From NCBI GenBank assembly GCA_002269645.1, contig NIVC01000620.1, forward strand, positions 1 through 64,000: a DNA stretch of 64,000 bases. Reading direction: 5' to 3'. The stretch is from Macrostomum lignano. Lineage: Eukaryota. A program made the position numbers and the translations under genes. Below the pieces are notes generated by a model. That model did not search any database. It was given only the letters and a program-made list of their open reading frames with translations, and was not told the origin of the DNA. Within the stretch, counting starts at the first letter, position 1, and each line of letters starts with the position of its first letter. Shown here in pieces: positions 13,850 to 56,037 of the stretch.

Positions 13850-15201
13850 GCCTGTAACTATTAAACGATGCGATCGACCTATCGATCGATCTTTCAATTC
13901 AGGCAGTTCACTTATTATTGTAAATGCCGTAATGTTTTAACTTATATAAAGAAGGAATATTGCTTTTCAAAGTTAAAGAACTAATTAATAGAAGGCAGTA
14001 GTTTGTATTCTCGCTTTTAAAGCATTTAAACATAAAAGTTTGTTTTGTTATACGTGCTACAATAGAGTTTCTGTTTCTCTCGATTTTTTCTTTCCGTGAA
14101 ACGAGAATCGCAACAAGCTGAAACTGAACTGCTGCAACTTGGTCCTGGAGGAAGAGGAACTTTATGCTGTTTTGCTGAGCGTAGTTTCTGCTGTTATCAT
14201 GGTATATTTTTTGTTATAAACAGTAGTTATTGTGGGATAGGTCAACACCTAAGCCATTGTTTTTAAAGTACAGCAGGTAACAGTCGCCGCAGGTCGCAGG
14301 ATTGTGAAACTGCAGTCCGAGTCCTGTCTGCAGTGATTCGGTGGTGCCTGACGGATCTATCATCCATTCATCCGGGAGGCCACAAGCTAGTGCCATATGA
14401 ATTAGGCCTAGTGTGTATATGTGAGCAAGTATGTTTTTACATAATTACTTACAAGACTGATTTTAATTAAATACAAGTCTCTGCTATCCATGTAAAATTG
14501 AAATAGTGTAGGGGGCTTAAAATGCATATTCGATGTCAAAATAATTTACTCAATTAAAGTGCACCAGTGCAGGATTGCCATTTGCCAACATTAGGCCTAT
14601 ATGATAATTTAATTATAAACTTTAATTATTTTTGCCATGTTTATGGTATGCAATAGTGTCAATACTTCCTTTTAAAATAAAAGTTATATAATAATTACAA
14701 AAAAATTATTTTTTTTAATGTTTGGCAAAATATTTCCTTCCGCTTCCTTAGCCTAAGGCTTAGGCTTATTTTAAACTTATAGTAGGCCTAGTTAAAATTA
14801 AATAAGACAATATGTTTTTTAATGAAAAGCCTAGGCCTAGCAACTATAATATAATTTTAATAAGTATTAAGCCTAATAAAACAGAATGTGCTAATATTAA
14901 TATAGGTCCTAGTAAAATAGGTCATAATATTAATATTAAGGCCTATTGAAATATTTAGTAAATATATGTATTATAAATATTATTATTAGCTTATAATATT
15001 TTATATATTTTATATTTATTGGAAAAAAGATAATCTTCTTTTTATATGCAAAACAAAGGATTTATAATATATTCTTGGCATTTATTTCTTAAAATTAGAA
15101 TAAATATTAAGGTAAGGGCAGAAAAAGAAATAGGCCTATAATTTTAGTGGTCAGTTGGCTAATACCAAAATAAGGGGTTTTGACTTTTGAACTATTACTA
15201 G

Positions 15202-16090
15202 TGAGGTAGGGGTGGTGAAAAAAATAAACAAGATTTGAAATTGTAAGATTAGGGAGAATAAAAAATTTGGGTTTGTCGTTGGCATGTAAAGCCGGAAAAT
15301 TGCACAAATTGCTGCGCTGATTCTTCTCCTAGGTTACTCCGTCTGCCGGGTCCTCAATTCCGGGGGAGGGTAGTCGTAATCGTAGTCGAGTGGTCCTGTA
15401 GCGGCCCGGGTCATTCAAATTAGGTCCTCAGACACCGAAAAATTATAGTTTGTCAAAATTGCTAGTTGTGTTACTCTCAGTAGTAAAGTAGCGCTGCCAC
15501 CACCATAAATGTCGTTTTACGGAATGTTTAGGGTCTCAGAGCTTTCTTTGAGATGAGACTGATTGGTTATTTTATGCCCCGCGGGCAAATGACTCAATAG
15601 AAAACTAAAGGCTTCAATTCTGAACAACTGAATAAATATTAAATGTTGCGAACTTATTATTATTTCGTTAATTATTATTACGGTTAGTTATTATCGCTAC
15701 GCGAGATGAACAAGCAGAGACAGGAGCAGAAACTAACTAAACTAAAACTCAAACAAACACACACACTTTAAAAAAAATGACTCCAGAGATAACTCATATA
15801 TAACATATTGGCGTGAAGGATCCCAGGGGTGGGACAGAGGATGGGACAAGGGAAGGGACAACGAAGGGAAAAAGAGGAAAACCCGGCTGCTGGAAACATT
15901 AAAACAACAGGGGCCAATGGAGGGAACAGAAAAGGGAACAGACAAGGGAGCAAGGGCGGGAACAAACGGGGGAACAAACCAGGGAACAAAAGTTGAAAAA
16001 AAAATGACGTCAATCTGTCCGGCCGTCCTCATGTTGTCGCCCGCGAGAGATCTGCCGTCGTTCACCCCAGTGGTAGACCGGCCTACCACA
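15202..16090 (-). repeat. 3' LTR of the Ty3/gypsy element
   Basis: Near-identical to 23941..24828; about 14 substitutions plus small indels seen by eye. Confidence 0.95.
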
Positions 16091-16142
16091 GGCGCGGGGG
16101 CGCCGGGGCGAATGGCAGCAGACAGACGAACTCCCGGACGTC

Positions 16143-16655
16143 TCAGGGGCGGCAGTCCTGCTTCGCCAGCCGGCCACGCGCAGGCTCGGGCTGAAGGTCA
16201 AGAAGCTGCAGGCGCTGCCCATTTAAGGCTCCGGGTGCCTCTCGATGGCGGCCTCCCAGAACTGGCGGACCTCTGGCAGCCATCCGTTCTGGAGGTGGCC
16301 CGCCTCCTAATAAGCCAGCGTGACAAATAGGGCGAGGGCAGGCCAGGGGTCGTCCTCCCTTGCGAAAGCAGGCATCTACACGCCGCAGCGTCGCATCGAG
16401 GAGCTCCCTCGTGTTCACGGGCGGCATTTCGCGACAGAGTGTCTGCCATGGGGCATCCACTTGAACGCGGCCCTTGTCGTCCGCCTGGTGGTAGGCCTCG
16501 TTGAGCGCGCGGCGGAGCTGTTCGCGAGCTGGGGCCGCGCCGCTTGGGGCAGTGGCCAGGGCCCGCAGGGTGTCAGCTTCATTGGTGGACAGCCAGGGCG
16601 CGGTTGTCTGCATCTCTGGAGAGACATTGTCGCAGTTGGACCAATTGTTAGCCAT
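16143..16655 (-). CDS. third ORF (ORF3) of the LTR element, unknown function, frameshift and stop in this copy
   Basis: MANNWSNC..APWLSTNEADTL..AYHQADDKGRVQVDAPWQTLCREM..TRELL, then in a shifted frame WPALALFVTLAY*EAGHLQNGWLPEVRQFWEAA. Homologous peptides are recovered from the older copy at about 25980-26340. The 3' end is uncertain. Confidence 0.65.
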   Translation of the reverse strand: MANNWSNCDNVSPEMQTTAPWLSTNEADTLRALATAPSGAAPAREQLRRALNEAYHQADDKGRVQVDAPWQTLCREMPPVNTRELLDATLRRVDACFRKGGRPLACPRPICHAGLLGGGPPPERMAARGPPVLGGRHREAPGALNGQRLQLLDLQPEPARGRLAKQDCRP

Positions 16656-17574
16656 AGAGCTGCGACGAGACGTAATGCGAGTGTCCAGAAGAAAATTTAG
16701 CTTAGCAGGTCGGATCAACAGAATTGGAGAAAATAAAATTGAAGATGGCCCCTAAAATAGGTGCAAAATATTCCAACTGGTGGAATTCCAAACCAACCAG
16801 AGGAAATAAAATTCAACCACTGGAATTGAGCCATCACCCCCGTGCACTCTAAGGTGGCACACAGAGTTGGGATGGGCGCATGAATCAAGGAGTCATAAAA
16901 TAGATAACCGCGCGGCAGGGGTCCAAAATCAGAATGAATGAATGGGGCGCCTCACACGGCTCACAAAACAGGTTGGCGGTTAGAGAGAGGGGGGGGCTGA
17001 ACATTCGCATAAACAGTAGTTTAGAAAAATAGTAAGAACATAGGTAGTTCCTAAAAATTAGAATAGCAGATAGATACAGGCATAGTGACTGAGTTAGAAT
17101 TTGGATCTCCATAAGGAGTTACACAAAACGGCAAAAGGCACTAGGAAGGGGCTGGACAGGCGCCCTTACAAATTTTCCCAGGCTCGGCTTGGTCAGAACA
17201 AAGAAAAAGGGGGCCGTTCACCTCAGATGCCCTCCGCTGAGGACAAGGCCTAGAGCCAGGGTGGCTAGACCTGAGCGGGGCAAACGACTGTGGCACCAGA
17301 GCAACATTGGCTTGCAAAAATTAAAAAAAATACCTTCAGCCACAAGCAAGGACTGCAAGGTTTACGATTGAAATATAACTTCGCAAAGTTAATGACACGC
17401 AATTGAGCAAATTAATGAATTGCATGCGGATAAGTAATTGTCGCGTAGGTGCTGGCTTTTCCCATCAAGCCTAAGGCTAAATATCAGAACGCAGAAGTGC
17501 AGGTCGCGTTGAATAAATATGGGCACCAATTGAGCATGAGCACAATGTACAAAGGCTTTTGACCGGAAAGCGTA

Positions 17575-17850
17575 AGGAGCAGAAATGGAAAAAAAAATTA
17601 GTTGCTTTTGCCCTCAAGCATAAGGAAAGTACATTGAGAAACACTGCTTTTGCCATCAAGCATAAGGGAAGTACAGAAATTAATTGCTTTTGCCCTCAAG
17701 CATAAGGAAAGTACAGAAAATTAGTTGCTTTTGCCCTCAGGCATAAGGAAAGTACAGAAAATTAATTGCTTTTGCCCTCAAGCATAAGGAAAGTACAGAA
17801 AATTTGTTGCTTTTATCCCTCAAGCATAAGGAAAATAAAATTGAACTGGA
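17575..17850. repeat. ~36-37-bp tandem repeat in the IN-ORF3 spacer of the LTR element
   Basis: ttgcttttgccctcaagcataaggaaagtacagaaaatt about 7 times; related units at 27480-27620 in the older copy. Confidence 0.9.
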
Positions 17851-18002
17851 AAATTGAAATCTGCTTTCAGCACAGAACAGGTACAGAGAAAGCTTACCGC
17901 AAAATTAAAATCGGAACGCGTTCACAAATTAGACTACTACTAGTAATGCGCATCAAAAGTTAGCAACTTGGCGCAACAGAAAATTCATTGGTAAATACCT
18001 TT

Positions 18003-21000
18003 TCAGATCTCCATTTCCATGCCGATGTCAGGCAGATCCGGGTCGCCTTCGGCGAGCACTTCCGGATGGCGGAGGCTTGGCTCAAACAGCTGACTGCCTC
18101 GCAGGTCTAGCTGAGTTGTGGCCGGCTGCTCTGGCGTGGGCTGATTGGCTGGGTCGACTTCGCTGTCTTCGCTCGACTCATAGGGCAGCATTGGCCGCTC
18201 TGTTTGGCGCGGTGGCTCCTGTGGTCGATCCGCCATCATCTGCGGCACCTTAATTATGTTGTTGCGATGTACCAACATTTCGGCGGGGTGTCCTCGTCGG
18301 GCAGTTGCTGGCTGGATCCAATAAGCTACTTCACCGACCTTTCTGTTGACCTTGTACATACTCTTGTATGGCCGGTGGAACTTGGGCAGCTCACCCAACT
18401 CGAGCTTCGGGTTGGCCAGGCAGACCAGATCTCCGGGCTGCAGTTCCACGGGCTTGGGTCGGTTCTCGTAGTATTCTTCGCGGCGTTGGATCTCGGCTCG
18501 CAATCACTGTCGCACAATTCTCTCGGTCTCGGCCAGTCTGCGCTGATGCTTCGCGATGTACTCGGGATGTCCGGAGATACGTCCAGGCGGTCTAGGGTGT
18601 TATCGATCGGGTACCAATAAGGCACTCTGTAGACGACGTAATGCGGCGAGAATCCCGTCGTACGATTGACAGCTGATCGCAGGGCTGTCAAAGCGGCTGG
18701 CAGCATCTTGTCCCACTGTTGATGATCTTCGAGAAGACAAGTGAGCACCTTCTTGATGTTTTTGTTGCACGATTCAGCTTGTCCATTGGCCCAGGGCGAA
18801 TATGGTGGCGTCGTTGTCTGCCGGATGCCATAGACTTCGCAGAAATGTCTAAACTCGTGCCCAGTGAACTGCTTGCCTTGGTCCGAATGGATCCACGCGG
18901 GAATTCCGGTGATTGGGAAGACTTGTTCCTGCAGCAGAGTTATAATTGTCTTGGTGCGCTGATTTTTCATGGCGAAGGCGAATGGATACTTCGACGTAGT
19001 ATCGACGTAGGTTAGGATGTACTTGTTTCCTCAGTCTGTCAGGTCTCCAGTGGGGCCCAGGATATCGATTGCACATTGCCCATAGATTTTGCAGACCGGA
19101 AACGACTGTACATGCGCCGGAATTCGTCGCCATCCTTTGCTTTGAGTGCAGGTCTGGCAGGAAGCAACATAGTCGGACACTGCCTTGGCCAGGGCAGGTC
19201 GCCAGAACCTTTCGCGCACCTTTGCGATGGTGAGGTCTCGGCCCATGTGTCCGCAGTAGGGCGAACCGTGCAGGTCGGCAAACACAGTGGGGTCGAGGCT
19301 CTTCGGCAGAACGATCCGCGCTTTCTCCTCTTCGCCAATATCGTCGAGATGAATAACTAATAGTCCATCGTCTCGGACTTCGAGCTGCTCGTAGAACGCT
19401 AGTAAGTTTCGTTCGTCTCGCTGATTTAGTGGCGGTTTTGGCTGTCGGCTTTCCAAAAGGTTGATCATCATGGCGATGGCAGAGTCAGCACGCTGATGAG
19501 TCTGGAGCTCCTCACGAGTGACTGGCCTCGGGATGTGATCAGTTAGATTCAATGTTGAACGTCGATTAGTCAAATTAGTTGGCGCGGCTTCGGCTATGGT
19601 GGCATGGTTCGGGGTCTGGAGCTCCCTCCGCACGATCGCTACTCTGGCCGGTTGCCGGGTCGTTGATGTGCCCGAAGGTCGATCCTTGTCGGTAGCTTTG
19701 GCGTCATTGTTGTCGGATTCAGATCGGTCAGCAGTTGATGATGAGTCAGCAGAGCTGTCCGCGTCGCTGCTGAATCTCACCTTCTTAAACTTTGGGCAGC
19801 GAGCGGGTTGGCAGCTGTCCTCTCTGGCTGCGCTGTGGTCGCTGTCTGTGCCGTCTCCAGCTAGTAGTCGGCGGCTCCTTGACGGGCAACATGTCGTGCT
19901 ACTAAAACTGGTAGGCGACCTCTGCGAGTCATCGTAACGGCTGGCTGATGGCCTCAGCTTCGTCGCCGGCGGGTGCAGCTCTGTCAGCGGCTTGCTGTCG
20001 GCTGTCGGGGTTGCTGGCGGCGTAGCCTCGCCGTTGGACTCCTTCGGCTTAGTTGGTGGTTTCTGTCGCTTACAGCGGGTCGACGGCTTCTTGCTCGGTG
20101 GAGGACTAGGGTGGCTGCTGTCGTGGACCTTCGGCGCTGCTGCGCCAGTTATCGCGGCTGGCTGCTTACTTTGGTCCTCATCAGCTGCCTTGCGCTGAGC
20201 CTCCTCCAAGCATTCGGCGTCGTCCTCCGGCCGTCTCGAGAGACTGTCGGCGTTTTGATGCTGACTCGATTTGCGATGCTGGATCTTGAACTCAAATTCG
20301 CTTAGTCTCTGCAGCCATCGTCCGAAGATTCCTTCTTGCTGAGTTCGCCTTAAGATCCAGGTTAATGCGGCATGATCGGTTCGGCAGATAAACTTCTTGG
20401 CCAGCAGGTAGAATCTGAAGTGTCGCATTCCATCTACGACTGCCAAGAGTTGCTGTTTAGTAATCGGATATCGGGCTTCGGCTAGTTTCAGTCGCCGGGA
20501 GAAATAGCCAATTGGTCGCTCAACTCCGTCAGCTTGGCGTTGGCTCAGACAGGCTCCGATTCTGGTTGCAGAAGCATCCGTGTCCAGGATAAACATTACA
20601 TCCGGATCTTCACTGAACTGCGGATACGCAAACACTGTCGTCGAAGTCATTGCGGCCTTGAGCTGATCAAACGCATCTTGCTGGGCTTTTCCCCATAGAC
20701 AATTCAAGTTTCTAATCCTCTTCTCCTTAATCAGATCGTGGAGCGGAGCAGCAAGTTCTGCATAGCTAGGTACGAATTTGGCATAATAAGCGCACGTGCA
20801 GACAAAACTTTTAAGTTGGCGAGCTGTCCTTGGTCTTGGCCAGGTTTGAATCGCTTCGATCTTAGCTGGGTCGGTCTTGATTCCATCTTTTGTTACCACA
20901 TGTCCCAGATAGTTTATACTGGCCCGAAATAGATGGCACTTCTTGCCTTTGAACTTTAGATTTGCTTCTGGAACCCGTTTGAAAACTTCTTCCATATGTT

Positions 21001-22852
21001 GTAGGTGATCGTTGAATTTCTTAGAGTAGACGATGACGTCATCCAGATAGGCTATTGCACTTTTGTAGGCGATCCCGTTGAGCACAGCGTTCATCAGTCG
21101 CATGAAGCTAGCTGGAGCTGAACTTAGTCCCATAGGCATAACATTGTAGGCAAATTGTCCGCAGTGCAGCGTGGCGAAGGCAGTCAGATCTTGATCCTCT
21201 GGACGCAGTGGAATCTGATAGTAGCCGCTGTTCAAGTCAAACGTGCTGAATAGCTGGCTTCCTTCGAGGCTAGCGAATGCTTCTTGGATGTTAGGAATCG
21301 AGTACGGAAAGTACTCACACTTTTGATTCAGACTCCTGAAATCTTGCACAATTCGTAGGCTGCCGTCCTTCTTCGGGATGATCACCAGCGGGGTGTTATA
21401 GCTGGAGAAGCTCAGTCGAATCACGCCTTTGGCCAGCAGATCGTCGAGTAACTGGTCCACCTTGGGTAGCAGGTGCGGCGGGATCCTTCGCGTTGGGAGA
21501 TGCACCGGATCTTTGTCCTTCAGTACGATGTTGTGGGTGACCAGATGAGTTCGGCCGAGATCGTGTGGCCCCTGCGAGAAGATGGTCTTGTACTTTCTCA
21601 ATAGCTCAATGACTTGAGCGCGCTGGTCTTTGGAAAGATCCTCACTGATATCAATCTCCTTAATCCAGGCATCGGGATCCTTGTCTTGGATTTGATTGAC
21701 AGAGTCTTCTGATTTCAGCAGCGGGAAGAAATGTAGCTCGGGCAGTCTGATTGGTCTAGCAATCCCGACTAGGGCATTCGCTCGCACTTTGATGGCTGTA
21801 GTACCATGGTTGATCATTTTGATAGCGCCTTCTCCATTAGCCATGGAAATCAGGGCAGGCGTGGCGTCCAGGTGCTGCACATCTTCTTCACGCCGAGCCG
21901 GTTTCAGCGGCTCGATCACTGCGGGTGTATCCTGGTTTTCTTTTTGTCCTTTTGCTAATTTGATTTTGATTCGGGCAGATGATAATGGTGGCACCGTAGT
22001 GCTTTCGGCGGTGTAAATTCTGCACGTTGTAGCTTCAGTTTGCATATAGCGAAGTGGTGCGGCAGTGCCGTCCTTGAAAAACAGCATTCCGGCGGCGAGG
22101 TCCAGTGATGTGCTGTACTTCTCCAGGAACTCGAAACCCAGAATGTTGTCATGCGATCCTTTTGCTAGCAGAAACTTGACTGTAGGCTCGAAATTACCAA
22201 TTTTCACTTTAATAGATAGCTGGCCGGCCATTTGAATAGGCTCTCCATTGTAGGTCACGATACGTTGAAGGCAGGGCTCGATTTGGCCACGCAAGGTCGG
22301 GTCGTCAGTACATAGGCGGTGCCAGGTGCTGAATCCTAGGACTTCGCACTTGGACCCGGTATCAAGCAAGAAAGCAAAATAGCGGCCCTGAATCTCACCA
22401 GTTAGAAACGGGTCTCTCCGAGGTCGCTTGGGTGCTAATGGCTGTATAGGTGCAGCGGAGGCGGTCTCAGCAGTGGCCTGCTGAGTGACTAAAGTCCGCG
22501 GCGGGGACTTCAGTGCTGGCTCGGCTGCTGGATGGCGCTGCCCCGATGGCGCATCCAGCCGTCCCGTTTCCCGAGCTGCTGTTGCGCTGGGATGCGGTGC
22601 TGGCCGACCGTCGGTGCAGGCACTCATCGGCGCGGTGCTCGCAATTGCACCTGTAACACATGGCATTCTGCTGCCGCAGCTGATAGGGCGGCGGCCTCGA
22701 ACTCGACCATTGCTGCAGCTGCTGCTGCTGCTGACGTTGACCTCCTGCTGGCGGCGTTCTCGGCGGCAGGTTGCTGCCGTCTTGTGGTTGCTGAAGTTGA
22801 TGGAACGGTTGCTGCGGCACCATACGCGTGCCAGGTGTCGTAAATTGGGCAC
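18003..22852 (-). CDS. pol: pol polyprotein (aspartic protease, RT, RNase H, integrase), disrupted in the integrase
   Basis: FLLDTGS protease; RIVQDFRSLN, DLNSGYYQI, MPMGL, YLDDVIV (RT); ILDTDAS, TDH (RNase H); H..PYCGH..C..C zinc finger; WIHSDQGKQFT and NGQAE integrase core. In-frame TGA at 19031, a frameshift near 18530 and TGA near 18507. Confidence 0.95.
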
Positions 22853-23873
22853 TTCCGTCGATGCTGCAGCAAGGAGTCGAGGGTACCAGACATCTGGAGC
22901 GTTGGCCCCACAAGTCCCGCGGCTGGTGGCGAGGTTCCCATGGCTCCAGGGCGTCGTTATCGCGCGATCCCCGAGAGTAGAACTCTCGCATCTCGTTACT
23001 CAAAGTTTCAAGTAGGCGTCGCTGCTCTTGCAATGTCTCGGCTTGTTGTACCATGACTTCCCGCAACCAGTTTTCCTCAGGCCGAGATGACTTGGCGTCA
23101 TGTTGCACCGCAGTGGGCGTCTGACTGTCGTCATCTTCCAGGACCCGGACATGCCTCGCTGCTGGCGGCGGTGCTACACGCTGAGCCAGACTAGCTGCTG
23201 TCTCCAGGTGTAGCATGGCCCTCCTCGCTGCGGTCAGATTCGGCAGTCGCACCAGGATGAGCTGTTCTCGGGCCGACTGAGCAATCCGCACTCCCACAGT
23301 GAATTGATCCACCAGTTCAGCCTGCTTCTGAACCGGGGTAAAATGTGGGAATGCTCGATCAGCCAGAGCAATTAGTCGGTCGCTGTAGTCGTCAACATTC
23401 TTGTTCTTGCCCTGCTGGCAGCTTCGGAACTGCTCCCAGTACTCCAGTGTGTCGGCAACATGTGTAAAGCATTCAGATAATCGCTGTTTGAACTCACCAA
23501 ACGTCAGATTATCTGGCAGCTCCATTCTGACAACTGCGGGGTAGGTGGTGGCGATGTCCAAATTCACAAGGACCTCCGCCTTCTTTCGTCTGTTGTCAAC
23601 GATTCCGTTGAGCTCGCATCGCTCTTCGAGAGCCTTGATCCAGACGTCGAATTCCCGGTTGGGCGTGTACTGCTGAATCTTGACCGGTTTTGGCGCTGGA
23701 GCTCGATCCTGCTGCTGGGGCTGCTGGTACACATGATGATGGTGTTGCGGCTGGCCCAGGCTGGTCTGCTCCAGTCCAATCATCTTGTCGTAGGTCGGTC
23801 TTGTATTTGAGTTGTCGGGGCCCGCGGCGTCGTTTGTCGCATCCGCGGCCGTTGAATTAGTAGTTGAAGCCAT
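22467..23873 (-). CDS. gag: gag (retrotransposon Gag with C-terminal zinc knuckle)
   Basis: 468-aa ORF starting just inside the PBS; FDVWIKALEERCELNG..FGEFKQRL..QQGKNKNVDDYSDRL capsid-like region; CYRCNCEHRADEC knuckle. Confidence 0.9.
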   Translation of the reverse strand: MASTTNSTAADATNDAAGPDNSNTRPTYDKMIGLEQTSLGQPQHHHHVYQQPQQQDRAPAPKPVKIQQYTPNREFDVWIKALEERCELNGIVDNRRKKAEVLVNLDIATTYPAVVRMELPDNLTFGEFKQRLSECFTHVADTLEYWEQFRSCQQGKNKNVDDYSDRLIALADRAFPHFTPVQKQAELVDQFTVGVRIAQSAREQLILVRLPNLTAARRAMLHLETAASLAQRVAPPPAARHVRVLEDDDSQTPTAVQHDAKSSRPEENWLREVMVQQAETLQEQRRLLETLSNEMREFYSRGSRDNDALEPWEPRHQPRDLWGQRSRCLVPSTPCCSIDGSAQFTTPGTRMVPQQPFHQLQQPQDGSNLPPRTPPAGGQRQQQQQLQQWSSSRPPPYQLRQQNAMCYRCNCEHRADECLHRRSASTASQRNSSSGNGTAGCAIGAAPSSSRASTEVPAADFSHSAGHC

Positions 23874-23919
23874 AACGTAGATTCTGAACGACTCGTCGAA
23901 TGGGTTTTGGCATCTCGTA

Positions 23920-23939
23920 ATCCCACTTAGCTGACACCA
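23920..23939 (-). promoter_or_regulatory. primer-binding site, tRNA-Leu(CAA)-like with 2-nt bulge
   Basis: Minus strand TGGTGTCAG-CT-AAGTGGGAT, 1 nt after the 5' LTR. The metazoan tRNA-Leu(CAA) 3'-end complement is TGGTGTCAGAAGTGGGAT. Confidence 0.8.
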
Positions 23940-23940
23940 A

Positions 23941-24828
23941 TGAGGTGGGGGTGGTGAAGAAAATAAACAAGATTTGAAATTGTAAGATTAGGGAGAATAA
24001 AAAATTTGGGTTTGTCGTTGGCATGTAAAGCCGGAAAATTGCACAAATTGCTGCGCTGATTCTTCTCCTAGGTTACTCCGTCTGCCGGGTCCTCAATTCC
24101 GGGGGAGGGTAGTCGTAATCGTAGTCGAGTGGTCCTGTAGCGGCCCGGGTCATTCAAATTAGGTCCTCAGACACCAAAAAATTATAGTTTGTCAAAATTG
24201 CTAGTTGTGTTACTCTCAGTAGTAAAGTAGCGCTGCCACCACCATAAATGTCGTTTTACGGAATGTTTAGGGTCTCAGAGCTTTCTTTGAGATGAGACTG
24301 ATTGGTTATTTTATGCCCCGCGGGCAAATGACTCAATAGAAAACTAAAGGCTTCGATTCTGAACAACTGAATAAATATTAAATGTTGCAAACTTATTATT
24401 ATTTCGTTAATTATTATTACGGTTAGTTATTATCGCTACGCGAGATGAACAAGCAGAGACAAGAGCAGAAACTAACTAAACTAAAACCCAAACAAACACA
24501 CACACTTTAAAAAAATGACTCCAGAGATAACTCATATATAACATATTGGCGTGAAGGATCCCAGGGGTGGGACAGAGGATGGGACAAGGGAAGGGACAAC
24601 GAAGGGAAAAAGAGGAAAACCCGGCTGCTGGAAACATTAAAACAACAGGGGCCAAGGGAGGGAACAGAAAAGGGAACAGACGAGGGAGCAAGGGCGGGAA
24701 CAAATGGGGGAACAAACCAGGGAACAAAAGTTGAAAAAAAAATGATGTCAATCTGTCCGGCCGTCCTCATGTCGTTGCCCGCGGGAGATCTGCCGTCGTT
24801 CACCCCAGTGGTAGACCGGCCTACCACA
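23941..24828 (-). repeat. 5' LTR of the Ty3/gypsy element
   Basis: Matches 15202..16090; followed on the minus strand by the PBS. Confidence 0.95.
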
Positions 24829-24832
24829 CTAG

Positions 24833-27800
24833 CATTAAGTTTGCATAAAAAAACTAGAAAATTACACAGACAAATCATAACTAGATTTTCTCCTGTTTTA
24901 CATTGGCTGCCAAGTCCTCAAGTCCCAGGGGGAAGGTAGTTGTAATTGTAGTCAAGCAGTCATTTAATAGGCATGGTAATTCAAATGGTAGACACTAGAG
25001 TTTTAACATCATAATTTAATGTACATTGATTTGCTTAGCTAATTATTATCAATAGAAAAGAGTTGCCACCACTGTAATTTTCATATTATAGAACTAATTA
25101 GTCTTAGAACTTTCTTTGAGATAAGAACTGTTTGGTTGTTTTATGCCCCATGGGCAAATAACTCGAGATAAAGCTATGGGCTTTGAGTAATTAATGAAAT
25201 AAATGTTGGCATAATATTCTTATTAGTGGCTATTTAGCAAGTTTAAGAAATAAGCTTCTTGCAATAGAGATGTTCTAACAGAGCCATGGTGTGGGCTAAA
25301 ATATGAATGCATATTAAAGAGCAAGATATTCAAGTAGGGATCTTTGAGTCAAAGCAAAATATAAGTAACTAATTGATCAAACCAAAAGATGAAAAGGTGA
25401 AACAAACAAGAGAGGAAAAGGGAAAGATAGAGAATAATTCAATAGCATGTAAAGTAAGCAATATTTATAGGATAAAAACAAGCACCAACAGTTGGGTCAG
25501 GCAAGGGACAAAATAGACTGAGAAAGGACAACAAGGCATAGATACCAAAATAACATATAGGATTGAATGGAGAAAACAAAAAGATCTACTACAAAGAAGT
25601 GGAAAGACTAGGGATTGAGAAGACAAATGCTATGCCATGAATAAGACAAGAAAAATGACAAAATTGCCCGGGAGCAGGAAAATTAGCTCCAGGGCTAGAT
25701 ACCAGATGCATTTTCAAAGAAGATAAAAAATTAAACTATTAAATCAGTCTCTTAATAATCAATGGCAACCAACTAACACATGCATTGGGTGGCTATAAGC
25801 TTGTTAACAAATATTAGCAGTCTGCTGCTCAGTTGTGTCCACCTTGGCTAGTGGGCATTTGACCACCTCAGACCACAGGCCATGTGTTCCAGGCTGGTTT
25901 GCTCTGGGCCTCACCTCATGTTGTCCAAGGTTGGGCAGTGGCAGCAAGCAAACTTACTGGCTATCTGAGTATATAGACCTGGCCAGCTATATCGAAATGC
26001 AAATGCTCAGGGCACTTCTCCACTGCAGAATCCCAGAATCGGCAAAGCCTAGGGTCCCAGCCTCCCTAGAGATAGCCGGCCTCCAAATAGGCTAAGGCCA
26101 TGAGTAAAGCCAAAGCTGGATGTAGTCAGCCCAGTCTGTGCCATAGATATTCCTTGGCAAACGTGAGTTGTTCTACAAGGAGATCCTTGGTTAATTCTAA
26201 TAGCATGAACCCACAGAGCATTCGCCAGCTGGGATAAGTTGCATGCGTCCCTTTCTAGTGGCCTGATATACTGCCTAGTCATGAAGGTGTGCAAAGTGGC
26301 CGCCTTATCTAGACAAAGCCAAGGTGTCCTAGACTAGATAGCCACCAATTTGGGCATTGACTTAGCTAGACTCAAGGTTGGGTAGGCGTCAATAAGGCAT
26401 TGTAATTGCAGTGCACCAGGGGATTATTGGCAAAGTCTTGCTAGTCATGGGGAGCCAAATGCAGCAATTGGGCAGCTCCATTCCACATTGGGTTGTCAGA
26501 AATTTTGCAGAAACTCACAAGGGTATACAATAACAAGATTGAATGAAAACAAAGAGGAGTTGACAGTCTATGTAGGGAAATTAAACTTGAAATTAGCCAG
26601 ATTTAGATAATAGTGTGGCACAGAATAATTTATAATAATAAGCAATCAAAGTTAAAAAACAGCCTTTAATACTAAGGTGGTGTCTTGCAGATAGACAAAG
26701 GAAGGTCCCATACTAGGAATAAGGCCTTCATCTTATATGAACTAGTGTTTAGGGGGAGGCTGAATGTGTAAACATTAAGTTGAGGAAAAATATTATAATA
26801 GTAAAAGGCAATTGTAGGCACCTTACTAATGATATTTTAATAATAGTAGGTTATTAACTGATATGTCATGCATGAGGAAGGGGCTCTATAAGGAGTTACA
26901 TTAAACAGGGGCTAGCAAAAGGCACTAGGAAAAAAGCCAAACTGGTGGCCCTCAGAGTTCCTAAGCTTGTGCAAAATTGGGACAAGGAACAGGGTTTGAG
27001 TTATCTCAGATGCCCTTTTCTGAGGACATGGCCTAGAAACAGGGCCTTATTATGTGAGCAGGGCAAAAGTTTATATGGTCCTTCAAACAGTAGTCTCGCA
27101 AAATTGAAAAGATACCTTCAGTTTTAATCAAACTGCAAGGTTTATAGAAATTGTTGCTTTTCTCCCAAAAGCATAAGGTTAGGGTGAAAAGAAAGGATAC
27201 TTTCCACACTTTGATTGCATGCAAAGAAAGCTCAGAATGAAATAGGGATATGCAAAAATCCTATAAAATGCAATTAAGCAATGGTAATATATCAAATTGG
27301 TTAAATATTGACGCATTGGTACGGGCTTCTAATATAAAGCCTAAGGCTAAATATTAGAGTGCAAGGTGCTAGTTTACTATAATGCATTGGATAAAAAGCA
27401 AATGCAAAATGTACATAAGCACTGAAATAGCTCAAAGGAAAATGCTGTTTTTAGCTAGAAAGCATAAAGAAATGGCATAAGCTTAATAAAAGCTGCTTTT
27501 GCCCTCAAACATAAGGCCAAGTTAAACAGAAAAATTGGTTGCTTTTGCCCTCAAGCATGGGACAATGACAAGAAAATTGGCTGCTTTTACCTTCAAGCAT
27601 AAGGTCAAATTAAACAGAAAATAAAAATTCAGCTTTCAGCATATATAAGTAGGCAGCGGCAAATTAAATTAAAATTTATTTGCAAACTTGACTACTGATA
27701 GTAATGTGTATCAACAGTTGTCAACAAGGTGCAACAATAATTGCTGGTAATAACCTTTAAATTTCAACCTCTATGCTAATCTCAAGCAGATCTAGGTTGC

Positions 27801-30800
27801 CTCTGGGTAGCACTTCTAAATGGCAGAGGCTTGGCTCAAACAGCTGGCTGCCTCATAGGTCAGGCTGATCTGCGGCTGGCTACTCTAGAATGGGCTGATT
27901 GGCTGATTGGCTTTGCTTTCAAGGCTCGACTTGTAGGGCAGCATAGGCTACTCAGTTTTGCATGGCAACTCCTACGGTGGGTCTGCCATCATCTGCGGCA
28001 CCTTGATGATATTGTTTCGATGGATAAACATCTCAGCTAGGCATCCTTGTTGGGCTGTTGCAGGCTTGATCCAGTAGGCTACTTTGCCAACCTTTTTAGT
28101 GACCTTGTACATGCTCTTGTATGGCTAGTAGAACTTGGGCAGCTTTCCCAACTCAAGCTCCAAGTTGGCTAGGCAGACTAGGTCTCCAGGCTGCAGTTCC
28201 ATGGGCTTTGGTCAGTTTTTGTAATACTCTTCTCGGTGTTAGATCTTAGCTTGCAGTCGTTGTCATACAATTCACTTTGTCTTGGCCAGTCTGTGCAGAT
28301 GCTTGGTGATGTACTCTAGGAGATCAGCCAATATGTCCAGGCAGTCTAGGGTGTTATTGATTGTGGTACCAATAAGACACTCAATAGACTGGTTGCCAGT
28401 AGTATGGTTGATGGCTGACCTTAGTATGGTCAAAGCAGCTAGTAGCATCTTGTCTCATTGTTGATGATCTTTGAGGAGACAAGTAAGCACTTTCTTAATG
28501 TTCTTATTGCACAATTTAGCTTTCCATTGGCCCAGGGCAAGTATGGTGCATTGTTGTCTACTGGATACCATAGACCTCACAGAAATGTCAGAACTTATGT
28601 CCTGTGAACTGTTTGCCTTGATCTGAATGGATCCACATGGGGATTCTATTGATCAGGAAGCCTTGTTCTTGCAGGAAAGTGATGATTGTCTTGGTGCACT
28701 GATATTTCATAGTGAAGGCAAATAGATACTTTGACATGGTATTGATATAGGTCAAGATGTACTTGTTGCCCCAGTCCATTGGGTCTCTAATGGGCATGCT
28801 TGGGCACAACCTAGGGATTCACCCAGCTGTTTCTATTGGCAACACACACACATAAGTCGCTATTGGACAGAATAGTAGTCACGTTACAGCTCTCAGCCAA
28901 TAGCGACTTACATGTGTGTGTTGCCAATAGAAACGGCCGAGTGATTCCCAAGGTTGCGCATGTATGCTAATGGGGCTTAGGATGTTGATTGCACATTGCC
29001 CATAGATCTCACAGACTAGAAACAATTGTACATGCGCTGGAATTTGTTGCCATCCTTTGCTTTGAGTGCAGGTCTGGTAAGAAGCAACATAGTCAGACAC
29101 TACTTTTGCCAGGGCACATTGCCAGAACCTTTCACACACTTTAGCAACAGTGAGGTCTTGGCCCATGTGTCCACAATAGAGTAAACCATGTAGGTTGGCA
29201 AACAGTAACATTAAGGCTCTTTGGCAGGATGATTCATGCTGTCTCTTCCTTGCCAACATAGCAGTCCTGTCTCAGACTTCGAGTTGCTTATAAAATTCTA
29301 GTAGATTTTGTTTGTCTCTTGTCAAATTTAATCACTGATTTAGCAGCAGCTTTGGTTGTCAATTTTCGATTAGGTTGATCACCATAGTGATGGCAAAGTT
29401 AGCATGCTGATAGGTCTGGAGCTCCTTGTGAGTGACTGGCCTTGGGATATAATCAGTTAAATTTAAAGTTTGGCGTCTGTTAGTAGAATTTTAATTGGTG
29501 CAGCTTTGGCTATAGCAGCATGGTTAGGGGTCTAGAGCTCCCTCTGCATGATCACTACTTGGACCAATTGACATGTTGTTGAGGTGCCCGAAGGTCGATC
29601 TTTGTTGGTAGCTTCGGTGTGACTATCTTTGGATTTGGATTTGTTAGCAGATAATGAGGTACAAGAACTGAACCTCACTCTCTTCTCAAACTTAGGGCAG
29701 CAAGTGGGTTGGCATTAGTTATCTCGGGCTATACTGTGGTCGCTGTCCTCGTCACCTTCAGCTAGTAGTTGGTGGCTCCTAGACAGGCAACGTGTCATGC
29801 TACTAAAGCTGGTAGGTGATTATTGCGAGTCCTAGTAATGGCTAGCTGATGGCCTCAGCTTTGTTGCCGGTGGGTGCAGCTCTGTCAGTGGCTTGCTATT
29901 GGCTGGCAATGTTGCTGGCAGCATAGCCTTGGTTGTGCTGTTGGACTTTTTTGGCTTCGTTGGCAGCCTTTATTGCTTGCAGCAAGTTAATGGCTTCTTG
30001 CACAATGGAGGGCTAAAGTGGCTGATATCGACGACCTTCGGTATCGCTGTGCTAGATTTTGTGGCTGGCTGCTTACTTTGGTTCTTGTCTGCTTTCTGCA
30101 CTGAGCCTCCTCCATGTTTTTGGTGTCGTCCTTGGGGCCATCTTTAGAGACTGTTAGCATTCTGATGCTGACTTGATTTGCGATGCTGGATCTCAAACTC
30201 AAATTTGCTTAGGCACTGTAGCCATCATCCAAAGATGCCTACTTGCTGAGTTTGCCTCAGGATCCAGGTCTGCCAGATCAGTTTGGCAGATGAATTTCTT
30301 GGCTAGCAGGTAGAAGCAAAAGTGTCACATTCTATCTACGACTACTAAGAGTTCTTGTTTCGTGATTGGATATTGGGCTTTGGGCAGTTTGAGTTGCTGG
30401 GAGAAATAGCCAATAGGGTACTAGATCCCATCAGCTTGGTGTTGGCTTGCTGTCCATGTTGACCTCCAGCTGGCGGCATTCTTGGCGGCAGGTTGCAGCT
30501 GTCTTGTAGTTGCTAAAGTCTAGAGAACTGGTTGTGTTGCACAATTTGTGTGCCAGGTATTGCTAATTGGGTGCCTTTGTTGGCACTGTGGCAAGGAGTC
30601 GAGGGTGCCAATCATTGGTTGCGCTAGGCCCACAAGTCTCGCGGCTGTTGGTGAGCTAGTTCCCAATGCTCCTGGGTGTCATTATTGCACAATCCCATCA
30701 AATAGAACTCTTACAGCTCATTGCTCAAAGCTTCCAGAAGTCATTGTTGCTCTTGCAGGGTCTCAGCTTGCTGTTCTATCACTTCACGCAACCAGTTCTC

Positions 30801-31060
30801 TTCAGGCTGAGATGACTTGCTATTGTGTTGCATCCAGTGGGTGTCTGACTGTTGTCATCATTGAGAACCTGGATATGTCTTGCTGATAGCAGTGCTACTT
30901 GCTGAGCCAGGCTAGCTGCTGTCTCAAGGCATAGCATGGCCCTTCTCACTATGGTCAGATTCAGCTGTCGCACTAGGATGAGCTGTTCTCTTGCCAACTA
31001 AGAAATTCGCACTCTCACAGTGAACTGATCCACTAGCTCAGCCTCATGCTTATTATTATA
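24833..31060 (-). mobile_element. older, degenerate relative of the Ty3/gypsy element (LTR remnant, ORF3, IN, RH, part of gag; PR-RT deleted)
   Basis: Colinear similarity to 15300..23330. Near 30450 it jumps from RNase H (young ~20540) to the gag end (young ~22735). Many stops. Its LTR probably begins left of the young element near 15108. Confidence 0.9.
28795..28966. mobile_element. 172-bp fold-back MITE, hAT-type TSD
   Basis: Perfect 8-bp TSD CTAATGGG (28787-28794, 28967-28974); long inverted arms (tttctattggcaacacacac..taagtcgctattgg and its reverse complement). Confidence 0.9.
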
Positions 31061-34425: not shown

Positions 34426-35109
34426 CATCAGAATGGGTGCGGCTAATAATTGATGCAACCGCCGGATTGATTGGCGTTAAGGCATCGGGAGCTGCTGCAG
34501 TGGATTTGCGGTGCAATCGCTTCTTCAGCCGATCGCTTCCACGCTTGAGCTGCTCACGACAAGCTTCTGCTCACAGTCTGCTCACAAACTGCTTTGACCG
34601 AAGGCCTGCCGGTGTCCTCGGTTCTGCCGAATAGCTTGGTCATCGCCTCTGTCAAAAAATTAATTGCATGGATTTTAGGTATAGTTAAATGAGTAAAAAG
34701 TATAAATGTGCTACTCATGATCAGAACTGATAGTAGTGCTTATAGCATTTATTTCTTTTCTCTGGTTTCGTTTCGTTTGATGTGTATATATCAAAAAGCT
34801 TACATTTATATGTTCTTTCGCTATCATAATTTTTTATGTAATGTATACAGCGGGCAGCCAGGATCGTTGGCCCTTCCGTCAAGGTGCCCTATAAGTATAA
34901 CCTTAGCACCCGCCGGGTCACTGGTGGACTTGCCTTTGCACATAAACTTCTCCTAGGTCGTGGCTCCGAAGAGCTTAAACTTCTCCTTCCATCTCTTATC
35001 CAGAATCCAGAAGTCTAGCTATGGCTTTCGTTCAAATAACTGCCTGTATGAATTCACCTTAAAAATTCCCTTCTATGGAACAGAAGTTCGAAAACGTCCA
35101 GATGTGATG

Positions 35110-36200
35110 CTAATCCATCCAGAGGTGGATTAGCAGCCAGTTTGCAATGCTTTCAAATGGGGAAAGTCTAAAATGACCCACTTTGATTTGTGAAGCCCGA
35201 GATGAAACCTCCGTTCTGACTTTTCACACAGACCTTGGGCATCCAGTGCGCAGTCAATCGGAGAAAGAAACATAGCCGAGGGACTTTTAGTTTTTCAGAT
35301 ATCCAGAGGCGGATTAGCAGGTCTGAGAATGCCCGCTTGCGATTTGTGAAGTTTGAACTGATCCCACAGTTCTGACTTTTCACACAGACCTTGGGCATCC
35401 AGTGCGCTATCAATCAGATAAAAAACCATTGCCGAGTGACTTTTAGTTTTTCAGATATCCAGAGGTGGATTAGCGGCCAATTTCCAATGCTTTCAAATGG
35501 GGAAAGTCTAAAATGACCCACTTTGATTTGTGAAGCCCGAGATGAAACCTCCGTTCTGACTTTTCACACAGACCTTGGGCATCCAGTGCGCAGTCAATCG
35601 GAGAAAGAAACATAGCCGAGGGACTTTTAGTTTTTCAGATATCCAGAGGCGGATTAGCAGGTCTGAGAATGCCCGCTTGCGATTTGTGAAGTTTGAACTG
35701 ATCCCACAGTTCTGACTTTTCACACAGACCTTGGGCATCCAGTGCGCTATCAATCAGATAAAAAACCATTGCCGAGTGACTTTTAGTTTTTCAGATATCC
35801 AGAGGTGGATTAGCGGCCAATTTCCAATGCTTTCAAATGGGGAAAGACTAAAATGACCCACTTTGATTTGTGAAGCCCGAGATGAAACCTCCGTTCTGAC
35901 TTTTCACACAGACCTTGGGCATCCAGTGCGCAGTCAATCGGAGAAAGAAACATAGCCGAGGGACTTTTAGTTTTTCAGATATCCAGAGGCGGATTAGCAG
36001 GTCTGAGAATGCCCGCTTGCGATTTGTGAAGTTTGAACTGATCCCACAGTTCTGACTTTTCACACAGACCTTGGGCATCCAGTGCGCTATCAATCAGATA
36101 AAAACCATTGCCGAGTGACTTTTAGTTTTTCAGATATCCAGAGGTGGATTAGCAGCCAGTTTGCAATGCTTTCAAATGGGGAAAGTCAAAAATTATCCAC
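35110..36200. repeat. 340-bp tandem repeat (~3.2 copies) built of two related ~170-bp subunits
   Basis: Identical 81-aa ORFs recur at 35168, 35508 and 35848. Each unit contains ttctgacttttcacacagaccttgggcatccagtgcgc twice. Confidence 0.95.
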
Positions 36201-37274
36201 TTTGATTTGTGGAGCCCAAGTGGAGCCCATTATCCGAGGGTTTGTCACCGCAGTCCTCGAAATTCACGCAGACTTCCACTCTTGTGGTGGTAGTGATGGT
36301 CTCCAGATTTACATCGGGGCCAATTTGCGAAGTCTTGGTGACCGTTTCGGTTGGCTCCCAGCTACATGTAAATGGGTCGCAGAAGTTCGCCCGTCCTTTG
36401 AAAGCCTGCTTCCACGTGCTTCTGCTTCCAGTCGCATTGTCGTCGGTGTCGTTCGTGTTGTTATTTGCATCGGCGAAGAACTCGCGGAATATGTCCTCGG
36501 CAAGCCACACACGCAGCGAAATCACGAATGTATGACAGTTGTAACATTTTGCTTTGTTATTTGCGGTAGCTTATACGAGAAGTAGAAGGGAAAACGAAGC
36601 GGGAATGCCACTGATAATGATAATTATCAACAACAATGACTACTGAAAATGCTTTTCGGGACAATTTTTTGCTGCCAATTCTACCGAGGCGCGGATCAAG
36701 GATTTTCCCCAGGGGAGCAAGCATATACGTCAGTGACCAATGTCCAGTTGAAACGCCCAACTCAAAGTGGAAAATGGAAATGAAAATTGAACAAAGTTTA
36801 TCTTACTGCTTTACTGTAAGTAGATAGGTGGGAGAAAAGGTGTGACAAGAAAGAAAAAAATTTTATGCTGACAAAAATTATTGCATTATGAATTCATGAT
36901 GCGTTTGCATCATTATTCGACAAAAATCGTTAATGGGCTCAATACACAAAGATTAAATAAATTTGTTACTTGTATGCTCGATCATCTCGCCTTAGCATCG
37001 ATTTTAACAAGAAAATTTGTCAACAATAAAACAGTGCGCCAAATAGTGCGCCTTGGGGATTGTAAAGAGAACTAAAATAAATAGAATTTTTTTTTGCTTT
37101 TATAAATTTGCAATCTCCAAAGCATCATGGTCCTCGCATTTCAGGGAAAATCAACCGCCTTTTTTATTGCATGAATGCAGTAAAAAAATTCTTCCCATAA
37201 TTGACGGGCGTACCCTGGCATACCCCTAGGCGTACTGCGCCCACAGTGCGCCCAAATTTTTTTTTCCCACTGGG

Positions 37275-37570: not shown

Positions 37571-38516
37571 AGAAATTTTAAAGGATCCAAGGGACGTAGG
37601 GAGATTCAGGGAGAGACCAGAGTTTAGCAATATATGTTTTAGAGTCAGACAGACATTGCCTGACATTCTGCGCAGTACCCCAGCCAACAATGTCTCAAAC
37701 CCTAATTTTACACGAATGTGCTCCATTTTATGTCTACCTCTATCCTACTAACTATTAACAAGTTTTTGTTTGTGTATGGCCTTAGATTTCAGAATACATG
37801 CAAAAGTAGTTCCGGGTATTGGAATTCCCCGGGTTCAAAATCCGCGGGTTTCGACAGCTTGTATAGCTATAATATAGAAATAACATTGTAAATTTGATTG
37901 CCTTGATACATGATATTTATTTAAATAGCAACTTAATGCATGCTATTACTTTAAACGTCCTGGCAAATGCACATTTTTGTACCTGTTAAATCTAGGAATA
38001 TCTGTCTTAGGCACCAACCCTATTGGAATAAATGTTGAAAACCTGCAGATGCATGCTTTAAAACTCACTTTTTTATTTTTATGCTCATGCAAAACAAAAT
38101 ATATGTATATGTAGCATAAATCAGTTTATATTTAGCCACTTTTTAGAGATTTTTAATTGGATGATTTTTTGGAATTGAAATTTACTCTTAAAAATTCTGA
38201 AATTTAGAAAATCGAAATTAAAATTTCAGAACATCTCTAAGCATTATAAATGACAAGTGTATAGGCCCCTTCCACAGAGGCATTAGGCCCTTCTATATAT
38301 ATTTATTTGCTGGAGAAGTAGCCAGCAGGAAAGGGCACTGTGCTTTAGTAAAATTTCAAAAATGCATTGGATGCCGTCTGTGGTTTTACAACTTTTTCCT
38401 ATAGGGGGCACCAAAATATGTTTATTGTGGTGTGCTTATGATACCTACCTACAGGTATATAGAAATATCAGCTGCTTTAGCTAATCGATTGACTTACTTG
38501 CAGATCAATTATAGAA

Positions 38517-41372
<2,856 letters not shown>

Positions 41373-46549: not shown

Positions 46550-48375
46550 CTTCTTCTTCTTCTTCTTCTCCGTTTATCGCCTTGCGGCGTGGAGTGAACA
46601 GCGTCAGGCTTCACCGCAAGTGCGTTTGTGTCGCGCCATGTTTGTCGCCGATAACGTTCTTCCGCACTTGTCGCATTCTGCTGTCTTCCTTCGGTATTTT
46701 CTTGCTCTTCTCTTGTTCTCCTCCATCTCCGGTGGATTGTGGTGTTGTTCTTTACATGTCTTTCTGTGCCTCGCTAGGTTCGATTTTACGATTGTGCTTC
46801 CACATTGCTGACATTTTACTCTTGACGCATCTATTTCCGTCTCGCCTTGGCACACCTTCTCATGGTTTGCCAGGGTCGCTTCCTGTCGGAACTCCTTGTC
46901 GCATTTGTGGCATCTGAATTTCACCGGCTCTTTAAACACGCGATGCATCCTCTTTTGGTGGATGGTTAGTCCGCCCTTGCTTTTACACACTTTGCCGCAG
47001 AGTTCGTATTCGCATTTGAAGCCATCTCCAACCTCTCTCGGGTTCGTTTTTACGTGGTACCGTTCTTGACTTCGTTCGATCAGGCTGTTGTTACTGTCCG
47101 TCTTGGCCTTTTTTCCTTGCACTCTCTCCCACTCTTGTAGGTGTACAGTCCGCTGGTGTACTACGTTCCGCCAGTGTTTCCTGTCTAGAACGTGGCGTTC
47201 GATGTCTTGCGGTTCCATACCGGCTTCCCGGATGAGGCGCTTCCAGTAGGATATGGTGTTGTTTTTCCGTTTTTTGCGCTTAGGGATCCTTTCCAGGCCT
47301 CTGTACCACCCTAATACGGCTTGCTTTATTTGTCTGTCGTCTTCCATCCGTAGGACGTGGCCAATCCTTTTTAGGTGACTTTTCTCAATCTTTGTTCTTA
47401 ATGACACAACACCTAGTTCGTTGCGGATATCTTGCATATTTACTCCTAGGCTTTCCATTTCGCGCAGCGGTTCCATTCTCTTGTTGGACCAAATGTTGCG
47501 GTATGTTTTGTCGATGAACTGTTGCATTTTTTTGATTTCGCCGAGCAGGAACGGGCGGGTGTTCGCATGGAACAGGAGTACACTTTCCACGCACGCCTCG
47601 ACCACTTTAGCTTGTGTGGTCTTTTTCAGGCGGCATCGATGGAACCTTTTCCTGATCGCATTCCACGCTTTGGCGGCTCTCTGGATTCTTTGCTGTGTGT
47701 CGTATCTCCTATCCATCCACGACCCTAGGATGCGAGTTTTACCTCCGACGGATGTTCCTAGGGCCATCTCCTCCTGTTTCTCGTCATTTGTCAGTTCTTC
47801 GAACTTCTTCATATTCTCTTTGGTCGTTGTTAGGCTTCTCGTCAGTTCTCTGCCATTGCCTAGGATGGTGGTGTCGTCTGCAAAGAGCGATGAGGTCCAC
47901 TTGACCGTTCGCATCTCCGAGTTGTACTGGTTGATTCTCTGAGGTGGCAAGGAGTGTCCAGGTAAGTACGTCCATTCCACCCCGCAGCTTAATCCTCTGC
48001 TGGCCGCTTCTGTCTCCCGAGTTTCTTCCGCTTTCCTGATGCTCGCCTGGTGGTAGATGTTAAATAATATCGGGGAAGTTGGGCATCCCTCGCGTAAGCC
48101 TCGCTCGGGTAGCCATGTTTCGCTTGATTTCTCCTTGCCTTGCACTTTATACGCGGTATGTTCATGCAGGTCTTTCAGTTTTTCGATCGTCTCTTGCGGC
48201 ATCTTGTACGCTTGGAGGATTCCCCACAGGATCGGCTTGCACACTCTCGGATATGCCTTACGGAGGTCTAGGAGGATTGCCGTTTCTGTGTCTTCGATGT
48301 TGCAGTCTCCTGATGCTCTTTTTGTTTCCAGGTACTCGGCAATGTCCTCGTGCATCCTGGTGAATATCTGTGCGT
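46550..48375 (-). mobile_element. 5'-truncated RTE-like non-LTR retrotransposon with C-terminal zinc fingers and (AAG)n tail
   Basis: LLDLRKAYPRV, GLREGCPTSPILFNIY, LFADDT (RT); four C-terminal Cys/His fingers (for example CGKVCKSKGGLTIHQKRMH); stop at 46604; (TTC)n at 46550-46569 on the + strand. No endonuclease or early RT motifs. Confidence 0.9.
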
Positions 48376-50246: not shown

Positions 50247-50859
50247 GATTTTCTGCTGGTAGGCGCTTTGAGTAGGAACTGCGCTAGTGCGTTGCAGCTT
50301 TTCTCTTCGTAACTTTTATGCTCTGGTTGTAGAGAGGAGTATTCATAGTCTAGTGTGTGCTCGTATAGTATACATGTATTGTGATTGGGAAAATACTGTA
50401 CAGTACTAAATGGGAAGCAGGCATTTTAATATTAATACATTTACGTAGCTTTCCCAACCCTATGGAGAGAAATTACTGAGACAACGAGACTTAAGAGACG
50501 TAAAGGATCTAAACTGCACAATTGTACGAGTGGGAAAAACTGTCTTACTTGAATGGCTTTTTATATCGATTTATTCTGCTACTGAACCGTGCATATTTGT
50601 CTGCTCCATAGGACTTATTCCTCCCTACGAGGCTGTGGTTTTCATTTAATCGATCTTAAATAGATTGAAAAAATAGGATAAAAATTTACACTTATTTATT
50701 GTGAGAATTACAAAGTAAAGGAGATATGCACGTCAGGGTTATTTTCATTGGCATGAATTGGCTTTGCTTAAAAAGATGTGAAAAGCCAATTCGTTGCTAC
50801 TACTCATAGTAAATCCGGCGCTCCATACGAAACCATTAATGTCAGGTTATTCCCAAAAA

Positions 50860-53199: not shown

Positions 53200-55870
<2,671 letters not shown>

Positions 55871-56037
55871 TGAGGTGAACTGCGAGTCGATGTCGTAGAC
55901 CAGCCACCAGGTGCATGTTTACTGCTCAAATACAGCTGAGGCACTAGAATCGGAGGCTACGAGTATAAATTCTGAGCTGAAACTCTGCTGCAGCTGCGTC
56001 TGTCGATTTTACCTTCTCAGTTTCTTCAGCATTGACA

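Follow-up and report, generated by a model that had tools for sequence, protein, structure and literature searches.

A conserved non-env third gene in a Ty3/gypsy retrotransposon of Macrostomum lignano and its possible role in stem cells

What does a retrotransposon encode between its integrase and its 3′ long terminal repeat (LTR) if this is not an envelope protein? The question is raised by a 64,000-nucleotide stretch of DNA from the flatworm Macrostomum lignano (positions 1 to 64,000 of contig NIVC01000620.1, assembly GCA_002269645.1; the window), in which a young full-length LTR element of 9,627 bp (15202-24828, minus strand) houses the remains of a third open reading frame (ORF3) at this place. 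A first-pass annotation, made from the sequence, had seen in ORF3 a conserved third gene for an undescribed protein, placed like env but with none of its features, and had suggested an anti-silencing factor, a small fusogen or a transactivator as its product. The intact relatives and the trace of selection described below support the first part of that description, and we consider it likely that ORF3 is a real accessory gene of the element and not an env gene. What its product does is addressed more tentatively, in part from published sources, which are cited here by identifier.

ORF3 and the element that carries it

The carrier of ORF3 is a Ty3/gypsy LTR retrotransposon. Paired LTRs, a target duplication and a primer-binding site are all present (Table 1), the Pfam domain order protease–reverse transcriptase–RNase H–integrase is that of Ty3/gypsy, and among solved structures the top match of its pol is Ty3 Gag-Pol (E 1e-73). 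The copy is not intact, because its integrase is split over three frames. An older related element lies in the same orientation at about 31050 to 24829, and its pol agrees with that of the young copy at about 75% of bases. ORF3 follows integrase in both elements, whose DNA differs by about 25%.

The peptide pairs by which the first-pass annotation had recognized conservation between the two copies are all present in the sequence where it had placed them. The frame 16143..16720 that it had taken for the protein does not correspond to one: the listed open frame (16655-16143, 170 amino acids) is broken, only residues ~19-103 match intact relatives, and the best-conserved block lies in another frame. 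Conserved blocks are spread over two frames in the young copy and three in the old, and past ~16229 none of the three frames could be convincingly aligned to the intact relatives (best shuffle p 0.034 in six tests). As its blocks lie in two frames, with an internal stop and with homology lost after ~16229, the young-copy ORF3 is judged from its sequence to be a pseudogene.

Intact copies do exist elsewhere. A HMMER search with the native ORF against 1.84 billion representative proteins gave two matches (E 1.7e-13 and 3e-11), both hypothetical proteins of M. lignano: BOX15_Mlig013834g1 (291 amino acids, P0003) and BOX15_Mlig017912g3 (233 amino acids, P0004). They have in common a core of ~145 residues that is unbroken across the sites where both window copies break, and where the two young ORF3 pieces align with P0004, identity is 46% for one and 70% for the other. 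No relative in another species was found in the libraries searched, including the 1.84 billion proteins, and Pfam, at E up to 1, gave no family for either intact protein. A literature search that included the terms Macrostomum, retrotransposon and ORF3 found no description of this gene (the earlier M. lignano LTR classification, the large orthogroup files of PMC7336406 and the supplements of PMC5946080 and of preprints lie outside its scope), and the word ORF occurs 0 times in the available part of the Mob DNA 2025 paper on M. lignano elements. By these comparisons ORF3 is a new sequence family of a known kind, the non-env third ORF.

Comparison of the two window copies indicates that a protein was once maintained. 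In a 38-codon block (16342-16229 against 26119-26006; tblastn E 2.6e-9 within the window) 21 of 38 residues are identical, where 13.3 would be expected on average at equal base identity, and this was matched in 2 of 20,000 shuffles (p 0.0001, a value flattered by the block having been picked for likeness). Identity at the three codon positions of the block is 0.58, 0.83 and 0.39. The antisense frame sharing the third position has 52% identity, but the sense frame is preferred because the antisense frame has four stop codons and a weaker codon pattern, with the first position best kept. An independent codon pairing of both copies anchored on P0003 yielded 83 pairs, of which three were dropped for stops; over the 80 counted, the proportions of nonsynonymous and synonymous differences (pN and pS) were 0.36 and 0.77 (ratio 0.46, bootstrap 0.35-0.61; 0.35 in the C-part), with a third-position identity of 0.35. 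It should be noted that these are uncorrected proportions and that the synonymous sites of ORF3 are saturated, so that its true ratio is expected to lie below 0.46. For the same copy pair the values of pN/pS in the positive controls were 0.21/0.43 (0.49) for pol and 0.16/0.48 (0.32) and 0.14/0.48 (0.29) for the integrase pieces; gag gave 0.27/0.45. The conservation above chance and the ratio agree with the annotation in pointing to past purifying selection on ORF3. Residue identity between the copies is 45% for ORF3 compared with 61-72% for pol, and the higher silent-site divergence (pS 0.77 vs 0.43-0.48) suggests that the ORF3 module split off earlier or was exchanged.

The predicted product and its possible role

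An AlphaFold model of the core (predicted local distance difference test score 74.7, predicted template-modelling score 0.69) contains seven helices and a short hairpin, with the hydrophobic stretch forming one 13-residue helix, and the core is accordingly predicted to be a soluble helical bundle. The helical character, the single short hydrophobic stretch and the missing signal peptide noted at first pass therefore hold up in the model and a hydropathy scan. Fold searches with the model returned no clear or distinct structural match. Over their last 30 residues the two intact proteins have 6 and 9 Arg/Lys and 2 and 1 RGG, and acidic residues are absent.

For the expression of the relatives we relied on published data. 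Mlig017912.g1 and.g4 correspond to transcript RNA1509_45341, classed as ‘neoblast-strict’ (PMC7336406), and P0004 (model g3) can be tied to this transcript because M. lignano models with a common prefix are clustered at 95% identity (PMC5730564). The transcript is of 1,242 nt and of the type 5′ untranslated region–coding sequence–3′ untranslated region; it falls after irradiation (log fold changes −3.9, −4.9 and −5.5) and belongs to a stringent neoblast set of 357 clusters (PMC5173321). Its human label (synapsin, e=0.010) is one we regard as spurious. An RNA of 1.2 kb fits a subgenomic message of ORF3 and part of an LTR, but a host gene or a 5′-truncated assembly would also account for it. For the family in the window, putative RNA contig sets from four runs were mapped to 16089-24830; all four cover ORF3, with small gaps inside it in sibling contigs and with a summed depth several-fold below that of spacer and pol, although at 85% likeness such a depth comparison is a weak measure. 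Two of the four sets also hold a joint skipping 2,611 bases (18563-21175) that is missing from the other two runs; it has non-canonical ends and 9 inserted letters and is likely to represent a deleted copy.

Our tentative proposal, which we hold at somewhat less than even confidence, is that the ORF3 product is a soluble accessory adaptor, expressed in stem cells and acting on the element’s own RNA in the manner of CERV or Rev. A subgenomic RNA or internal entry would be needed because gag, pol and the 22 ATGs of the spacer precede ORF3 and would put it beyond the reach of scanning on the genomic RNA, and we suppose that a short RNA, spliced or internally started, is made in stem cells. The helical core would then be a binding adaptor and not an enzyme, both intact proteins would use their Arg/Gly-rich tails for RNA binding or as a nuclear signal, and the target would be the unspliced genomic RNA, at the level of export, stability or translation, with the tandem array retained in the spacers of both copies as perhaps a contact point. 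The case for such a role rests on little: where the gene lies, the predicted solubility of its product, the basic RGG tails, the enrichment of one relative in neoblasts and the spacer array.

Several observations weigh against this proposal. The neoblast data concern a relative, and reach it through the sister models g1 and g4, not g3 itself; Mlig013834.g1 is classed as non-specific, with a social-group label (PMC7336406); and P0003 and P0004, known as protein sequences alone, may be host genes. The acceptor CAG that the first-pass annotation had singled out, with its end at 16660 and 4 nt upstream of the ATG, is present but unexceptional, since by a crude pyrimidine/AG-free test 11 of 627 AG sites in the element score at least as high, five of them (16660 included) in the same spacer. 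No joint ending at 16660 was seen among the 15 of 104 joints listed (contigs only), and contigs X1-1 and X4-25 run unspliced across it. The site does not fit the top spliced-leader trans-splice motif [T/C]TNCAG, but that motif accounts for no more than 9,551 of 21,754 known M. lignano trans-splice sites (PMC8629364). RNA folding of the 17594..17834 tandem array gave no stable structure (z +1.15). In the window copy a basic tail cannot be clearly made out: the corresponding stretch, of uncertain frame, has 5 Arg/Lys, 3 acidic residues and no RGG. Finally, the core model was built on an alignment of six rows, and scores of the other four models were 58-66.

Non-env third ORFs have precedents, of which the additional ORFs of plant LTR retrotransposons are reportedly one. 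The bdelloid rotifer elements Juno and Vesta carry additional ORF3s after pol that encode GDSL or DEDDy enzymes (PMC5408684). Like the rotifer and plant ORFs, ORF3 is a family-specific, non-env third ORF after pol; unlike the rotifer enzymes, neither intact protein matches GDSL, DEDDy or any other Pfam family, and ORF3 forms a new sequence family in a flatworm host. The model for the proposed function is CERV, a nuclear protein made from a spliced mRNA of Cer1 in Caenorhabditis elegans and needed for export of the genomic RNA (PMC10309623). Both appear to be lineage-restricted accessory proteins of Ty3/gypsy elements, lacking outside homologues and occurring in cells that pass the element on. 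In contrast to CERV, which has 517 amino acids, exons shared with gag, a Cys loop and a G-protein-like domain (PMC10309623), the window family has 170-290 amino acids, lies after integrase and has a helical core with few Cys (2 and 5 in the intact proteins of 233-291 amino acids).

Alternative readings

An unlikely alternative is that ORF3 encodes an anti-silencing factor. It would bind a protein of the host's silencing machinery (PIWI/piRNA, methylation or chromatin) or else the DNA of the spacer repeats, so that the element stays active in neoblasts; the plant VANC proteins are the model for such a mode of action. The faster divergence of ORF3 than of pol would be expected, although an older divergence or recombination also fits it, and the drop in cover over ORF3 in all four runs, weak as the measure is, resembles that of conflict genes or swapped modules. 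The helical, adaptor-like predicted fold would also suit, but neither a host partner nor a DNA-binding motif was found. Methylation-type silencing likely acts on the lineage, to judge from CpG loss in the older copy: observed/expected CpG in the older element (24829-31051) is 0.07-0.26 vs 0.63-1.02 in the young one, and T stands in the older copy at 213 of 476 aligned young CpG cytosines vs 10-21% in other contexts. This points to methylation-driven decay; low 5-methylcytosine is reported for M. lignano (PMC10658182).

It is distinctly unlikely, on our assessment, that ORF3 began as a host neoblast gene captured by elements, or is an element gene since domesticated, with P0003 and P0004 as the host copies and the element copies as passengers or exapted. 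Both relatives are annotated as genes of M. lignano at low copy number (2 member sequences each, on 1-2 contigs), one has a complete short neoblast transcript, and P0003 has ~130 extra residues. That two diverged elements have the gene at the same place, with selection evident in their comparison, speaks against a host origin, as does the absence of relatives from other species in the libraries searched; moreover, gene models of M. lignano are built from transcripts and may include elements. A cytoplasmic helper of the particle, for structure or trafficking, which would bind Gag and move particles between cells or into the nuclei of dividing neoblasts, is improbable, as the protein has no membrane anchor and no distinct structural match.

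Very improbable, and largely refuted, is a degenerate env or a small fusogen of the sORF2/FAST-like type. The position after pol is that of env in gag-pol-env elements, and some lepidopteran sORF2 genes also lie after pol as short accessory ORFs (bioRxiv 10.1101/2025.03.14.642691). Proteins of that type in MDG1-group elements have an MGxxxS/T start and a single membrane helix after an ectodomain of 10-50 residues (same source), whereas ORF3 and its relatives start MANN, MDDT and MADE and have a longer helical core with no membrane helix. With no myristoylation motif, and with no hydrophobic helix of the shared core long enough to span a membrane, the small fusogen suggested at first pass finds no footing. 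Neither intact protein has a signal peptide, a furin site (R-x-K/R-R) or an N-glycan site; their N-termini are acidic or polar (hydropathy scan, no dedicated predictor), and the top 19-residue hydropathy is 1.39 for P0004 and 1.6 for P0003, where the peak falls outside the shared core. The hydropathy and motif scan of core and termini showed no membrane anchor; the core model is globular, and no F-type or gB-type env ectodomain fold was among the matches listed in fold searches with the 145-residue helical-bundle model. The annotation’s analogy with errantiviruses is weak, because flatworm errantiviruses have the order gag-env-pol, with an HSV/gB-type env between gag and pol (PMC13524379), and the available part of PMC12801592 lists no errantivirus cluster for M. 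lignano. That ORF3 is no real gene, the likeness being that of non-coding 3′ sequence by chance, has next to no probability: both window copies are broken, but the codon-position pattern and saturated synonymous sites contradict it and the two intact relatives rule it out.

Surroundings of ORF3 and wider meaning

Features of the two elements are collected in Table 1. For the young element, the primer-binding site is one which we take to be tRNA-Leu-like. The gag-like ORF gave no match in a Pfam scan, and no polypurine tract was seen on the element sense strand before the 3′ LTR (16091-16130), a C-rich stretch. A low-complexity linker of ~300 residues (19300-20200) separates RNase H from the integrase zinc domain and is partly retained in the old copy. 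The young element adjoins the edge of the older copy’s LTR-like remnant, no continuation of which was found below 15201. LTR families reported for M. lignano are Mag, CsRN1, Gmr1/Osvaldo and Mdg3/Micropia (PMC12801592). Elsewhere the window contains a long host exon encoding GRAM and myotubularin phosphatase domains (38493-39902, plus strand), two more elements with reverse transcriptase and a non-LTR appearance (46604-50315 and 53209-55956, both minus strand; one with C2H2 zinc fingers after the reverse transcriptase, one with RNase H), more integrase remains near 58032-58214, and large tandem arrays at 50902-52000, 35081-36220 and 40881-41060 (a 21-bp unit in ~45 overlapping copies, a 340-bp unit and a GATA run).

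Table 1. Positions of features of the young and older elements in the window
Feature	Position	Strand	Basis or comparison
Young element
Target duplication CTAG, 4 bp	15198..15201; second copy 24829-24832		read off sequence
3′ LTR	15202..16090	−	98.3% identity to 5′ LTR across 889 columns
ORF3 best-conserved (PALAL) block, other frame, stop at 16309-16307	16229..16342	−	comparison with 26119-26006
ORF3 5′ piece, ATG 16655, frame break near 16350	16347..16655	−	homologous part 16601-16347, 48% to P0003 over 85 amino acids
Candidate splice acceptor CAG, last AG before ORF3 ATG, 4 nt upstream	16660..16662	−	sequence
Spacer, non-coding, 1,347 nt, 22 ATGs	16656..18002	−	sequence
Tandem array, 41-bp unit, 5.9 copies	17594..17834		repeat scan
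Remaining integrase, frame-broken	18003..19030 (19030-18326, 18503-18003)	−	ORF list, Pfam, comparison with old copy
pol: protease, reverse transcriptase, RNase H, integrase zinc domain	19031..22999	−	Pfam
gag-like ORF, ATG at 23873, one CCHC-type knuckle	22467..23987	−	ORF list
Primer-binding site, after 5′ LTR	23920..23939	−	sequence
5′ LTR, 888 bp, TG...CA ends, TATATA at 24540	23941..24828	−	sequence comparison
Older element
LTR-like remnant	24884..25186	−	69% identity to young LTR
ORF3 remains, three frames with stops	25928..26327	−	46% to P0003 across 101 columns, E 3.9e-16
Tandem array, 42 bp, akin to young 41-bp array	27492-27621		repeat scan
gag-pol-integrase remains, decayed	27760..31051	−	~75% base identity to young element

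At its fullest, the account would be that one Ty3/gypsy lineage in Macrostomum has a regulator specific to stem cells, with a helical fold of a new family, which has its own short RNA in neoblasts, is exchanged between element families faster than pol and permits element expression in the cells that build soma and germline, one copy being maybe already a host neoblast gene; in this extended form we regard it as doubtful. Plants, rotifers and insects are known to have extra ORFs after pol, few of them with an assigned function. An intact, expressed relative in a worm amenable to RNA interference and transgenesis makes the role of non-env third genes directly testable, and with it the question of how retrotransposons exploit adult stem cells. 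It also suggests that a published neoblast-marker entry, the one with the synapsin label, may be a transposon product.
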